From positions 1 through 62,339 of IMG/VR virus record IMGVR_UViG_3300045806_000066: a DNA stretch of 62,339 nucleotides; one strand, given 5' to 3'. The DNA is from a virus. Taxonomy: Duplodnaviria > Caudoviricetes. The notes beneath the pieces are model-generated. The model searched no databases, was not told the origin of the DNA, and was given only the letters and a program-made list of their open reading frames with translations. Position numbers and translations under genes: made by a program. Below are positions 54,301 through 60,300 of this stretch, piece after piece (positions within the stretch are counted from its first letter, which is position 1; every line of letters begins with the position of its first letter).

Positions 54301-57300
54301 TGTCAGTGCTGCCTTGGCGGCCTTTACGTCCGCCTTGGCCTGGTCTACGCGAGGCTGAATCTCGGCGGGGCTGCGGTAGTTATAGGTTCCGTTCTTCTCG
54401 TTCTCCTGAGCCTCGGCCAGTTGTTCAGTCTTGTACTTCTCATCAGATTGAGCGCGTTCTAGTTTATTGGCCGCATCCGTGAGTGCCTGCTGTACTGCCT
54501 TATCCACCGGAGTCCAGCGGTAGAAGTCGCTGGCCGGGCGCTTCGTCCAAGTACCAGCCTCGGGCCGGGTAGCCCACACGGCTTCCTCGGTGTGCCCATC
54601 CGCGTGAACGATGGCGTGCGCGTCGGCGGTCATTACAAGCTGGCCTTTGTCGTTCCGCAGAACGCGGGGATGCTCGCTCTTGGCCTTCGCCTTGTTGAAT
54701 TCCTTTTCTGCACTTTCGGCAGGGCGGCGCTCGGTGCGCACCTGGGCATCGACGGGATAGTAGAACGTCTTGGCTCCGGTCGTGGGGTCGGACGCCAGCG
54801 TGCGGAACTCCTTGACTGCAAACGAGTCGCCGGGAATCTTCTTGACGCCGGTATCGAGCGTGCCGTCTGCGATGGCCTGTTTCACCACGGCATCAAAGAT
54901 GTTGTAGAAATAGTTGTAGACCGGCTGCTGCAGGTCGGGGTCGAGCGCGAGCAGGCGGTTGAGCAGGCGCGTGACGTTCGTCCGGTCCGCCAGCGGAACC
55001 GTGGTGTTGCCGTCCTTGTCGGTTTTGAGAACGCGGAGCTCCTTCAGGACATCGTAGCCGCTGATTGGCTCGCCGTCGGCTCCCTTGGTTTCCGGTATTG
55101 CCGTTCCCCGCAACAACTGCTGGTAGAACGAATTAGCCGCAGCCTTACCTTGCTCCGTCTCGAAGTTGACCTTCGACATCGCCTCGGTGCCGGTGTTCGT
55201 CTTGGTCTGCCCCTTGGACAGAGCTTCCAGCGATTCCATGCGCTTTGCGATCGACGAGATGAAACGCGATTCGCCGCCGAGATCAGTCTTGAGCAACCCG
55301 TACTCTGGAGCGTTGACCTGGTTGGAGCGATTGAAGCGGCCATTCATCTGCATGGCCTTATCCGCGCTCCAGCCAACCTGCAGGGTGAGGCATAGGCGCC
55401 GCTGCTGGTTTTTGGCTCCCTTGTCGGAGTGAAGCGAGATGCCGGTATCGGCCGCAGAGGACAGAATCGCAACCCGCTTCTTGCCACTCTGGAAGTTCGC
55501 CATTTCGGACTGATTTACCTTGTCCTGGCTGACACCGTTGCCGCCACGATTCACCAGCCGGTTCGTCGCCGGGTCGTACCGCTGCTTGCGCCCGGTCAAC
55601 TCGGCCACCTTTGAGGGGCCACCAAGCTGTTCGATCAGCTCATCCAGCGGGTTACTCGGCATCTTCAACTGGTCGAGCTTCTCCAGCAGTGCCTCGCGCG
55701 CTGCGACGGCGGTAGGGTTCAACACCGGCTGCGAAGTATCGTTGCCATTCTTGTCCTTGACAAATACGGGAACCTTGATCGGCTTGCCGTTGCTGTCGAT
55801 GTCGTCTTTGTACTGTTGCACCGGGTAGTGCTCGGCAACCATATCTTTCAGCATCTTGCCGGGGCCAAAGTCGTAATCCGGCTCCTCGCGTTCCTCACCG
55901 CGATCTTCCGCCGCTACGCGGTCCTTCTCCCGGTTCTGCGCCGCCTCGTTGGTGTTGATGAGGGTGATGCCCACAGACATCGGCTCATGCTTCGTACCAT
56001 CCTCGTCCGTCCATCCCGCCAGCGCCTTCTCTGCTTCGGCCACGGCGGTCGGAATCTTAATCGAAGTCAGCAGGAGATTGAAGAACCGTTGCTGGGTGCT
56101 AAAAAAGGCCGACATTGCGCGGCCCTTCTGCATCCCGCCGCCATTGGTCGTGGTGGCGATAGTTTTCTCCACCGACTCGTAGATGCTGCGCCATGCCGCT
56201 GCAGCCGCTGCATAGACCTGCTTCTGCTCCGGGGTAATGACGTGCTGGATCTCGCGGTACTCCACTCCCTTGAACGTCAACGTGCGGGACACGTATTTAC
56301 CCTGGGCCTTGAGTTCGCGGGCGATCATCTCCATGGCCGACATGCCGCCATGGGAGATTTCTGCGGCAAACTGCGTGAAGCCGCCGGGGAACGGCGTGCC
56401 CGGTCCCCAGAGTCCAAGCCGGTCGAGATACCCGAGGTTCATCACGTCCGTTGCGGCCGTCGCGGAAAGCGAGACGGTGCGCAATCCCGGCATGTTGTCG
56501 AGGAACTTCTTGACCGTCTCTCCCACCTGCGAGGCTTGCTGCCCTTTGGATACCACGGCGTTTTTCAGCGCGTGCGACTCGTCCATGAGCATGTACCCGC
56601 CGTCGCCGCCATCCTCGCCGCGCAGCCATTTATCGAGCTGCATGGCGCGCGTGTTCCCCTTCTTGTCGGCGCTACGGAGAAGCGACCATGTGGTGAACAT
56701 CACACCCTCATGCTCGATAGGCGCGCCGGATGGAATTTTCCCGAGGTCTCGCAGGCTTTTGGCGAGTTGCTTCGCGCCAATGCCTTCCAGGTCGCGGCCA
56801 GCGTCGGCAATCAGGTCTTTAGACTTTGTGACCCATAGCAACCGCTTGCGTCCCTTGTTCCAGTTGTCGAGCAGAATTCCGGCGCCGATGCGGCCCTTGC
56901 CGACACCTGTACCGTCCCCAATCAGCGCACTGGCGCGCGCTCCGCTGGGGAGAATGATGTCGTTCTGCATCCCGGCGATCGAGACGGCTTCGAGTTGCAC
57001 CGCGGAGAGTTTGGCTCCGGCGTAGTTGTCCGATGCCTTACCGACAACGGATTCTGGAAGGCTGGGCTTGTAGGTGAGTGGCGGCATGGGAACCGTCGCC
57101 ATGCTCTTGGTTTCTACGATGGAACCGGGATGTTCGGCTCCCTTGAGGGTGGGCTTGTAGGTGGCGTATGCCGACTCGTCTTCCTGATCGCGCCCGGCTT
57201 CGCGGGTAGCGACTTGCTCTAAGTCGAGACCTCTGACTGCCACTTGTCGCTTACCGTCAGCATTTTCAGGACTTCCTCCAACACTTCCAGCGGCGGCTCT

Positions 57301-60300
57301 TTCATTATTTGCTGGAGCTTCACTTTCTTGTTGAGGTACTGGAAGTTGTTGAGCCCCGTTTGCGGGTCGAGGCGCTGCAACGTCAGGTCGATTTCCTGCT
57401 GGTCGAGCGACGGCTGGTACTTCTCCATCAACGCCTGCGCTTCGTCCGGGTACTCCTCGAACGCCTGTGCTACCTGCGTCTGAATTTGCCGCCACGCTAC
57501 TTCCGGTGGAACCTTGCCGAATCCCAGAGCTACCGCTGCGTCCTGGTCGAGTTTCGTTGGTGACATTGGCTGGCCTCGATTCTTCTACTGGCTTGAGAGC
57601 ATTGTAAGCCTCTTCGAGCGTATCGACGTTCTTAGAAATCGTGGAACCGCTAAAGGATGGGGTTGGACCATCCTTGTCAATTACTATGATGCGCGTAGCA
57701 AACGACGTGCCGTATTTCTGGTACTCCTTGCCGTTCACGCGAATGTTGGCGCGCACATTGTACTGTTGAGCAACCTTAGCGAACCATGCGCCGGATTGCC
57801 CACCATGGAGCGAAGCTCCGCCTTCCGGCTCGTTGGCCTGTCCACCGCCGAGGATGGCTACCAGACGTCCACCCGGCGCGAGGCGCTGCAATGCTTGGTC
57901 TACGTGGTTGTAGCCGTAGACGTTGCTGTTCTTGGCCTCATAGCTCTTGGTGGTGCTGGCCGAGAATGGCGGGTTCATCAGGATAACGGTCGGCTTGATG
58001 GAGTGATCGAGTAGAGCGTTTATCAACTCGCCATCATGCGCGGTCGGCTTATCGAATCCAGCCGCTTCGAGCATCTGCTGGCGCCGGGGTGCAATCTCGT
58101 TGACGTGAACCTCCGCGCCGATGGCTTTCGGCCACACGGCCAGCCCACCATTTCCAGCGGAAGGCTCCAGAACCACATCGGATGGAGTGAGGTTCGCCAC
58201 CTTGGCGGCCACGTAGCTCTCGGTCGGCGGGGTGGAAAACTGCTGATTCTTGATCTGCTCCTCGGTGCGAACACCTTGCGAAGTAAGCCGCGGCATCAGT
58301 TCCCGCAGCTTGGCGAGTCCCTCAATGCCGTCCATCTTCATCAGTTCGTCGCCGTGCTTGAGCAGGTACTTGTTAACGCTTGCCTCCATCGCATCGAACA
58401 AGTCTTTTGGAGTCCAGTCGCCCGAGGTGCGCGAACCGCCAAGGTACTGCTCGCCCAGCTTGTTCAGTTCGGTGACGTTACCCAGCGATTCGCCTGCTTC
58501 GAGCTTGTCGTAGATGGCGTTGATGAGAGCGCGAACCGGCTCCTGCTCCGATTTCGTAACAGGCTCGTCCGGTATACGCTTGACGGTCTCGCCGCGCAGG
58601 TTCTTGATGATTAGGTCGCCAGAAAGCTTCGGGGATTCTTTCTCCTGAATCGGATGTACTTCGATGCCGCCACGAGTCGGCACCAGTGCGGCCTTGGTCG
58701 GCTTCGGCGCTTCCGGCGCACGCTCGGGCGGGTAGGTATAAGGCTTGAGAGACTCGCGCTTCGCCATTACGATCTGGCCGATTCCCTCACCGCGTCCTGT
58801 CACTTTCTCGATACTCACTGAGCCAGTACCATCGAACAGGTTGCGCACGCGCCCGATGCCGGAAGAGAATCCATCCTTCGAGTCGTAGGTTACGAGGTCG
58901 CCATTTTTCAGCGCCTTCGCCTTCTCCCCGGCGGCGCGCAGCTTCGATCCCGGCGTCTCCGGCTTGGTGTCGTCGGCTACGAAATCCCCGGTGTTCTCGC
59001 CTACCTGTTTGGCGCGGTCATCCCAGAACTCTTTGAAATGCGGACTCTTGACGGCGGTAACCGGCAGAACTTGTCCGAGGTGCTTCTGCGACCACTGCTC
59101 GATCGCCTGCTTGGTCTCCCCGGTCGGATCGTCGGCCACACGCGCGGTGAAGATTGTCACCTTGTTCCCGGCGGCGAGTGCCTGCTTGACCTTCTCCACC
59201 ATGGCCGGTACGGGCTCGCCAATCACGGTCTTCCCTTTGAATCCCTCATAATTTGCGAGAGTCCCGTCGAGATCCACTGCGATGGACTTCTTGCCCGCGG
59301 GCGCTTCGGCGTCGGCCGCTTCTGCTGCGATGTCCACTTTCTGCGGCTCAACCTTGGTCAGCTTCGCCGGGTCAGCGACGAGCTTCTTCTTGCCGTCGGG
59401 CAGGATGACGCGCGCCGGGGCAGCCTTGCCTCCGTTGCGCGCCGGGGCTCCTGGGTATTCCACCTGGACCGGCTTGCCGTCCAGCATGGCCGTATCGCCC
59501 TTGGCGAGCGGTTGGCTCCCAGCCTGGGGAGGAACAGGCTGGGGTATCCCGGCGGGAGCGCTACTCACCGCAGCAGCGGGGCCTTCGGAACCCGCGCCGG
59601 CCACTTGTGGATTCTTCGCCTTGTCCACGGCTGCACGCAGCTTCGATCCGGCGGTCTCCGGCGCGCCCTTGAGCTGTACCGGCGTCTCATTTCCGTTGCG
59701 GTCCGTGATCGAGATGGAACTGACGGTGAACTTCTTGCCGTCCGTCACGCTCATGCCGGTGTAGCGGCTGGCCTTGGCCGGGTCAACATACGCCACCGTG
59801 GCGTGCGGCTTGTACTCAGGGAAACTACTGGGTGCAAAGTCGCCGTGCTTCTCGATCTCGGCGTTGATGCGGTGGAGCTCTGGTGCGTTGACGGGCGCGA
59901 TGATCGGCGCGGCACCGTCGCTGTGCTCCGTGGCGGGGAAACTGGCTGTCTTGCCCAGCGTGGCTTCAAACGGTGCTTGCGACTCGATGAACGCCATGAG
60001 CTTCGCGGTGTCGTCGCCCTTTATTCCGTAGCGGACGGTGACGTGTGGATCTTCTTCCAGTCCAGTGGTCTGATCTCCGCCGAATTCGGTCGGCATGAGG
60101 TCTTCTTTGGATATGCGGGCGCGGGCCATCGCCAGTGCTTGACCGGCTTCGCTTTCGTGGGGAATGGCGGCCTGGGTGTTACCGTGCTTGTACTTGGTCG
60201 ACGTCTCGGCTTTGGGCGCTGGCGTGGATACGGTCAGTAACTCAGCCGTACTCCCATTGCCCTTCGCGTGCTCGTCGGCGATCTGCTGCTTGATCCGCGC

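Follow-up and report, generated by a model that had tools for sequence, protein, structure and literature searches.

A probable out-of-frame gene nested in the methyltransferase-helicase linker of a giant phage polyvalent protein

Genes nested out of frame in other genes are known from both bacteria and phages, but few of them are supported across deep divergence. In phage lambda, Rz1 is a complete gene in the +1 frame inside Rz and has its own start; both products are made, and the two spanin proteins work together (PMC5295617, PMC6139136). Polyvalent proteins with a DNA methylase-helicase dyad, of the P1 DarB and Strawberry-notch type, were described by Iyer et al. (2017, PMC5512222). The main text of that paper does not use the words “linker”, “overlapping”, or “low-complexity”, and a second gene in the spacer of the dyad is not part of its description. 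Literature searches returned no paper describing a gene inside a methylase-helicase linker. The locus described here is located in the IMG/VR virus record IMGVR_UViG_3300045806_000066 (Duplodnaviria; Caudoviricetes), referred to below as the window. It is a complete virus record of 62,339 bp with direct terminal repeats. The right end of the window is filled by a single open reading frame (ORF) of 3659 amino acids (aa) at 51310..62289 on the minus strand, the giant gene. A second, much shorter ORF lies in the +1 frame of this gene, between the regions predicted to encode an adenine methyltransferase (MTase) and a Strawberry-notch helicase. This nested ORF is very probably a genuine second gene within the spacer of a giant polyvalent protein. 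Its position, its start signal, and the linker that contains it are as follows.

57219..57566, minus strand: nested ORF, ATG start, 115 codons plus a TAG stop (57221-57219), +1 frame of the giant gene
57574..57577, minus strand: GAGG motif resembling a Shine-Dalgarno (SD) sequence, 7 nucleotides (nt) 5’ of the nested ATG (57566-57564)
57585..57587, minus strand: nested-frame TAG lying 7 codons ahead of the ATG, the upstream bound of that frame
57190..57609, minus strand: MTase-helicase linker, giant aa ~1561-1700, G/S/R/P/A-rich, open, and poorly conserved

A sequence-only reading of the window had proposed a same-strand, out-of-frame ORF at these positions, with its own GAGG SD sequence and an extent matching the G/S/R/P/A-rich stretch of the giant frame. 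Each of these proposals is borne out. The ORF is wholly contained in the giant ORF, on the same strand and in another frame, its 115-aa translation is the one that had been given, and it covers giant aa ~1575-1690, which is the span of the G/S/R/P/A-rich stretch. The predicted pairing of the nested start with the anti-SD sequence is -5.9 kcal/mol. Both ends of the nested ORF are spelled by less common codons of the giant frame. The ATG is composed of the minor Asn codon AAT and the next G (AAT is used 37 times and AAC 101 times among 138 Asn codons), and the TAG is composed of the rare Leu codon TTA and the next G (TTA accounts for 4 of 245 Leu codons).

The base composition of the linker follows the nested frame. 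GC content at codon positions 1, 2, and 3 is.64,.46, and.74 over the whole giant gene. The nested frame resembles this pattern (.64,.30, and.76), while the same bases read in the giant frame give.75,.64, and.30. With the amino acids and the codon usage of the gene taken into account, the GC content at third positions (GC3) of the giant frame in the linker is 0.34, where 0.72 is expected (z=-10.3). The flanks of the linker have z values of -1.2 and -0.7, and the nested ORF is the sole strong frame-shifted GC3 signal in the whole giant gene. A weaker GC3 shift toward the +1 frame is present at giant aa 201-400 (.59-.65 in frame 0 and.72-.76 in frame +1). The A/Q/P-rich N-terminal part also contains a 121-codon open stretch in the +1 frame (61434..61784, minus strand, giant aa ~165-285; 116 aa from a GTG). 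This weak N-terminal signal may be a matter of composition only.

A search with the dyad region identified 769 giant-length homologues. The DNA sample comprised 18 viral, 7 plasmid, and 9 genome loci. Both anchors flanking the linker were found in 118 of the best 120 of the 769 homologues. None of these 118 linkers is shorter than 110 aa, and 85 are 110-175 aa long. The combined proportion of G, S, R, P, and A is.54 in these linkers and.37 in the flanks. DNA was available for 20 viral loci, 18 of them with both anchors. A +1 ORF of ~110-155 codons is present at the same place in 17 of these 18, with giant proteins 31-54% identical; since two of the loci (L027 and L031) are the same here, this corresponds to 16 of 17 distinct loci. 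The 17 loci differ greatly in base composition, with GC3 of the flanks ranging from about 0.4 to 0.9. In all 17, GC periodicity in the linker matches the +1 frame (z=-2.9 to -19.6) and the giant frame is open. Across viral and other loci with a long linker, GC3 of the giant frame is below expectation in 19 of 19 (z=-2.1 to -19.6). In the same run, two loci with short linkers have z values of -0.7 and -1.0, and flanks are within about +/-4.

The nested ORFs start just after the MTase. They stop 17-68 nt short of the helicase anchor, except in the three long linkers, where they end earlier. The position of the start is conserved. An Asn or Asp codon of the giant frame plus the next G, or else the codons in the corresponding position, spell the ATG, which lies just 3’ of a GGAGG-like motif spelled by L-E-G in the giant frame. 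In the relatives, an in-frame stop occurs 2 to 33 codons upstream of the nested start. Pairing with the anti-SD sequence at -6 kcal/mol or lower is predicted for 13 of 19 nested starts and for 10.2% of 1270 background +1-frame ATGs from these genes (Mann-Whitney p=1.6e-7). Three loci (L021, L022, and L024) have weak pairing at the start chosen by alignment, and an upstream ATG may be used in them.

Beyond the viral loci, one Acidobacteriota genome (L051) encodes a 3560-aa giant with the nested gene. The nested gene also occurs in the giants of two Methylococcaceae plasmids, those of Methylomonas sp. LL1 and Methylotuvimicrobium alcaliphilum 20Z MEALZ_p (L040 and L042). The MEALZ_p nested ORF lies at L042 1979-2320, with a predicted product of ~114 aa. 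For both plasmids, RefSeq annotates the giant gene alone. The arrangement is, as judged from these sequences, old and widespread among giant methylase-helicase dyads of phages and some conjugative plasmids.

Dyads with short linkers lack the nested gene. The viral locus L038, with a 73-aa linker, has no nested ORF and no shift (z=-0.7), and the gene is absent from five plasmid genes with linkers of 63-98 aa (L041, L043-L046). One of these, on plasmid A of Trichormus variabilis ATCC 29413 (L044), has a 68-aa linker (~1882-2088) with no open +1 frame, yet its giant-frame GC3 is.19, where.45 is expected (z=-4.4). Also without the nested gene are three short-linker fusions of ~1500 aa, four split MTase/helicase pairs in Acidobacteriota genomes, and L052. 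In the split dyads (L048, L049, L050, and L055), an MTase ORF of ~330 aa is followed by a helicase ORF of 911-1478 aa with no small gene between them. The fusions (L047, L054, and L059) have spacers of ~46-49 codons between the matched stretches. Of the 301 genomes sampled in the survey that yielded the Acidobacteriota loci, 7 gave any match. A tblastn search of a phage collection with giant aa 1400-1900 returned no match.

Substitutions between loci are distributed as expected for selection on the nested frame. When the DNA is aligned with no reference to either frame, mismatches are least frequent at nested position 2, followed by positions 1 and 3, in 10 of 10 pairs. The pooled counts at nested positions 1, 2, and 3 are 426/1159 (.368), 318/1159 (.274), and 524/1161 (.451). 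Nested position 2 is the least changed, and therefore the third (“wobble”) position of the giant frame is its best conserved. In alignments guided by the nested protein, which lean toward the nested frame, identity is.32-.49 in the nested frame and.19-.34 in the giant frame and is higher in the nested frame in 11 of 11 pairs. In these alignments, the proportion of nonsynonymous differences (pN) is below that of synonymous differences (pS) for the nested frame in 10 of 11 pairs and above it for the giant frame in 11 of 11.

The giant frame is nevertheless intact. It contains no stop in 15 of 15 nested loci, versus 0.7-12 expected from synonymous shuffles of the nested frame, and the probability of this is below.05 in 13 of the 15. 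The giant frame is kept open by selection, and both frames are maintained, the nested frame for its sequence and the giant frame for its continuity. The locus has three features of an out-of-frame nested gene: a complete ORF, a ribosome-binding site and start of its own as read from the sequence, and purifying selection.

The protein encoded by the nested ORF (P0001) has relatives that are called as separate small proteins. A word-indexed search identified 13 relatives with 49-93% identity. These are annotated as proteins of 107-195 aa, mostly on short contigs. Their start, C-terminal end, and many conserved residues are those of the nested protein. An exhaustive profile search of 1.84 billion cluster representatives returned 142 at E<=1e-3, 98 of them at <=1e-10. 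Most of the 142 are ~95-150 aa and the longest is 884 aa. None is contained in frame in a giant-length protein. In a single case (P0273, 429 aa), an MTase domain is joined in frame to nested-frame sequence just before the linker, which may reflect a +1 frameshift, either real or a sequencing error. Some free-standing relatives (P0153, P0158, and L004 1322-2368, plus strand) form the C- or N-terminal part of proteins of 350-500 aa with a second conserved domain. Searches of Pfam, NCBIfam, and the Atlas found no match to this second domain in proteins of the P0153/P0158 type.

A scan of metagenome and genome contigs with the nested alignment yielded 17 loci, only one of which (L002) has the giant gene around it. 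At the other loci, DNA homology to the window is confined to the ORF and stops at its ends. The same alignment found no confirmed relative in the viral contig collection. The flanks of the free-standing copies contain a serine resolvase, a tyrosine integrase with an IS91 transposase, or an excisionase-like helix-turn-helix protein, and have no homology to the giant gene. Six free-standing copies have no stops in the nested frame, and five of them have 1-9 stops in the giant-equivalent frame. In 21 of 21 pairs drawn from these six plus the window-type copy, pN of the nested frame is below pS. The nested frame is selected and the giant-equivalent frame is broken, so the free-standing copies are working genes and not decaying fragments. 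They begin at the same Met as the nested ORF, as do the gene calls on short contigs. The window nested protein is 56-61% identical to five of the six and 39% identical to the sixth (L014), compared with 32-43% to the nested proteins of related phage giants.

The nested protein is acidic (isoelectric point 4.5), as are most of its relatives. The sequence-only reading had expected an amphipathic helical protein, and the AlphaFold2 model is compact and all-alpha, with 8 helices, a mean predicted local distance difference test (pLDDT) of 84.1, and a predicted template modelling score (pTM) of 0.77 from 16 sequences. The model of a second subfamily (L027 type) is also all-alpha, with pLDDT 88.6 and pTM 0.83 from 10 sequences. 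Nothing stands out in Foldseek searches of the PDB with the two models (best E 1.8 and 2.4). A wide VIA-align search gave best Z values of 4.4 (root-mean-square deviation (rmsd) 3.8, 99 aligned) and 3.1 (rmsd 4.5, 74 aligned), and no predicted viral structure in BFVD matches either model (best E 1.3). Both models list the chains 4e57_A, 1or0_B, 2ffl_A, and 3n2z_B at similar ranges, a faint hint that the two subfamilies may share a fold.

No family for the nested protein was found in Pfam, PHROGs, NCBIfam, PDB sequence profiles, or the ESM Atlas. A match of P0001 to DUF6657 (16.4 bits, E 0.0097) was rejected; it is below the curated cut-off of 27 bits, and the relatives L020 and L022 have no match. 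A complex prediction for the nested protein with giant aa 1240-2100 (MTase, linker, and helicase N-lobe) gave a score of 0.22 (mark 0.32) and was run without controls.

The computations show conservation, selection on the nested frame, a giant frame kept open, and a foldable product. They support two further proposals of the sequence-only reading. The first, that the composition of the linker is a by-product of the second frame, agrees with the shifted codon-position composition at 19 loci. The second, that the overprinted gene is real, is upheld by the separate small-protein relatives (13 close ones and 142 cluster representatives from the search it had recommended), the frame-specific substitution counts it had likewise recommended, the free-standing copies under selection, and the confident folds. 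It had named stops in the nested frame of homologues as grounds for abandoning the idea; the frame is open in 17 of the 18 viral loci with both anchors.

Under this reading, selection in the linker acts mainly on the nested frame, which evolves as an ordinary protein gene does, and the giant frame only needs to stay open. The giant frame reads the nested bases as a G/S/R/P/A-rich, poorly conserved, and seemingly passive tether. The nested protein would most likely be made, as for Rz1 inside Rz, by internal initiation on the giant mRNA from its own SD sequence and ATG. Such initiation would cause the small protein to be made when and where the giant protein is.

Several observations count against a genuine nested gene. 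One pair of loci (L029/L030) has no purifying signal in the nested frame (pN.489, pS.442). The SD motif overlaps a conserved motif of the giant frame (LLEGVRNDR-like) and the loci are phylogenetically related; because of this overlap, conservation of the SD sequence is not independent evidence. Openness of the +1 frame is not significant in itself. Synonymous shuffles of the giant frame give p=0.34 for L002, whose linker is that of the window, and p=.03-.68 for the length of the +1 stretch across 21 loci. Because +1 stops are rare in the coding sequence of a G/R/P/S/A-rich peptide, an open frame is no proof by itself, and ORF length was dropped as evidence after the shuffling. The window subfamily is not readily joined to the others by hhalign. 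Small profiles (A3 versus A4) gave no match, and later comparisons gave E=.013 and then E=3.5e-4, the best with enlarged profiles reaching 37% probability over 107 collinear columns. Membership of all subfamilies in one family is only moderately supported by these profiles. Lastly, four metatranscriptome libraries contain contigs of 151-342 nt that are identical or nearly identical to the giant gene, one of which corresponds to 57396-57670 and spans the nested start. Their start, end, strand, and depth are uninformative, also with respect to translation, and DNA carry-over is possible.

As to function, the small protein is tentatively read from its context as an accessory partner of the methylase-helicase module, that is, an escort, chaperone, or regulator. 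The sequence-only reading had suggested that it may be a chaperone, inhibitor, or packaging partner of the giant protein. The partner reading is favored because of the fixed position between MTase and helicase and the restriction to giant, putatively delivered forms. Two observations count against a partner role: minimal and split methylase-helicase genes do without the small gene, and free-standing copies exist, one of them in an incomplete metagenome-assembled genome in which no match to a Strawberry-notch helicase was found.

The same two observations speak for the alternative that the nested gene is real and independent of the giant, a small acidic anti-defense or host-takeover protein that merely shares the locus. 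This alternative is a close rival of the partner reading and only somewhat less likely. It draws further on the purifying selection, mobile-element contexts, and lack of nearby giant homology of the free-standing copies. It is also consistent with a product that is acidic, small, helical, and fast-diverging between subfamilies, and with the description of the host family as a collection of counter-defense domains in the main text of PMC5512222. Unrelated cargo would be expected to move, whereas all carriers examined, very different phages and plasmids among them, have the gene at one and the same site, between MTase and helicase. Nor did the family libraries and fold searches reveal any similarity to a known anti-defense protein or fold.

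A related proposal concerns the origin of the giant form. A small gene between separate methylase and helicase genes may have been read through in another frame, welding the two enzymes into one putatively injected protein. Such fusion through overprinting is speculative and, on balance, unlikely. It fits because codon-position composition is typical of the genome in the nested frame and atypical in the giant frame, because no giant among the 118 homologues has a linker shorter than the nested gene, and because split and short-linker forms occur without the small gene. In the same proposal, the small gene would survive in the weld, and its product, translated from inside the giant mRNA, would serve as an obligatory partner (escort, chaperone, or regulator) in thousands of phages and plasmids.

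A recent insertion, in which a small mobile gene landed in the giant linker of this phage and was tolerated there, is improbable. It would account for the greater similarity of the window nested protein to five of the six free-standing copies than to the nested proteins of phage giants (with L014 again the exception), and for DNA similarity that stops at the ORF ends. It does not account for a nested ORF at the same site in 17 of 18 viral loci, or for the absence of linkers under 110 aa among the 118 giants, 85 of which have 110-175 aa. The shared site and the absence of short linkers indicate that the ancestor of the giant forms already had this arrangement. Recombination would at most have exchanged the sequence of the nested gene.

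Recoding is more improbable still. A +1 shift from the MTase frame into the nested frame would produce a fusion, or a shift in and back out would make the nested sequence a piece of the giant polypeptide. P0273 has the structure expected of such a fusion. It is one of 142 relatives, none of which is giant-length, and may be the product of a frameshift error or mutation. In L026, L027, and L040, only 2 codons separate an upstream nested-frame stop from the ATG, and in several others the distance is 5-9 codons (7 in the window), whereas a programmed frameshift leaves no stop between the shift site and the second frame; slippery sites were not searched for. The shared Met of the free-standing homologues and short-contig gene calls also argues against recoding.

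Least credible is a non-functional +1 ORF arising as a by-product of a low-complexity G/S/R/P/A linker that rarely makes +1 stops, which agrees with the shuffles that often give +1 stretches as long but leaves unexplained the depressed giant-frame GC3, the nested-frame substitution pattern, the SD sequence and ATG, the free-standing homologues with the giant frame broken, the 142 relatives, and the confident folds from shallow alignments.

The giant gene that hosts the nested ORF contains, from its N-terminal end, a 2H phosphoesterase, a HAD-like stretch, the MTase, the linker, the helicase, and a long C-terminal part (51310..62289, minus strand). The features outside the linker are listed here.

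Giant aa 746-867, minus strand: 2H phosphoesterase, PF13563, Pfam E 7.5e-10
Giant aa ~1000-1100: HAD/PNKP-like stretch, weak in Pfam, phrog_1238 E 1.3e-9
57670..58311, minus strand, giant aa 1327-1540: adenine MTase domain, phrog_6263 at aa 1347-1484 and phrog_9133 at aa 1327-1540
56209..57135, minus strand, giant aa 1719-2027: Strawberry-notch helicase N-terminal P-loop domain, PF13872, E 2.1e-86
54841..55653, minus strand, giant aa 2213-2483: Strawberry-notch C-terminal helicase domain, PF13871, E 1.3e-73

An NPPF motif is visible in the MTase domain of the giant translation. The MTase is fused at its C-terminal side to an SF2/SWI2-SNF2-like helicase in one open frame, and the same chain carries further putative effector domains (the 2H phosphoesterase and the HAD/PNKP-like stretch). 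The gene for the terminase large subunit is directly downstream of the giant gene, and plasmid relatives of the giant gene adjoin TraD and topoisomerase III genes. As judged from these domains and neighbors, the host protein is a polyvalent protein with a methylase-helicase dyad. The 2H phosphoesterase domain may be a counter-defense module that degrades cyclic nucleotides. The same residues (giant aa 746-867) have a weak match to the anti-CBASS protein Acb1 (PF23474, E.0065, below the cut-off).

The giant gene starts 50 nt from the right end of the genome (62289..62339). Its last 55 nt (51310..51364) are shared with the beginning of the terminase large subunit ORF as listed (49598..51364, GTG). 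The longest ORFs of the window are mostly on the minus strand. Window positions 56590-57789 (giant nt 4501-5700), which comprise the linker and the start of the helicase, are identical to L002, a near-identical phage contig, over at least 1.2 kb. In adjoining 300-nt bins there are up to 43 differences, a mosaic that suggests recent recombination between related phages. Substitution density between the window and L002 was considered as evidence of dual coding and rejected; there are no differences in the nested ORF, but the identical tract reaches well into the helicase.

A gene in this position is invisible to standard annotation, and gene callers report it mainly on contigs too short for the giant frame. 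If genuine, it adds a player to the methylase-helicase (“DarB-like”) module and offers a clean natural case in which another gene sets the sequence of an interdomain linker. The other frames of “disordered low-complexity linkers” found in giant proteins of mobile elements would then merit a look. The system is tractable, in that start and stop changes can be made that are silent in the host frame and the carriers include plasmids of cultured methanotrophs.

Among the known systems, the comS gene inside srfA of Bacillus subtilis is small and out of frame, lies in a giant multi-module gene, and uses the host mRNA for its expression. It has 46 codons, is lineage-restricted, and encodes a regulator unrelated to the chemistry of the host enzyme. 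The gene described here has 110-155 codons and is conserved across host phyla, phages, and plasmids. VirE1, which serves VirE2, and the class I type III chaperones are small, acidic, helical proteins encoded next to a large translocated protein. Their likeness to the nested protein would be one of functional analogy only, since no similarity in sequence or fold was found here.

The host gene itself agrees with the dyads described in the main text of PMC5512222, as it combines an adenine MTase, a C-terminally fused helicase of SF2/SWI2-SNF2 type, and putative effector domains, and is located in a phage near the packaging genes. The relationship of Rz1 to Rz, as given in the sources cited above, is the model for the partner reading. 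In both cases, one gene of a phage occupies the +1 frame of a second and has a start of its own. No relation in sequence or fold to Rz1 or Rz was found. Unlike these two small envelope proteins, the host here is a 3659-aa multi-enzyme protein, cytoplasmic or in the virion, and the nested product is a putative one. The nested gene here also fills an interdomain spacer, in which the host-frame sequence is seemingly a passive tether. Nested out-of-frame genes and the host family are both known; a deeply conserved, unannotated gene family in the linker of the giants would be new.

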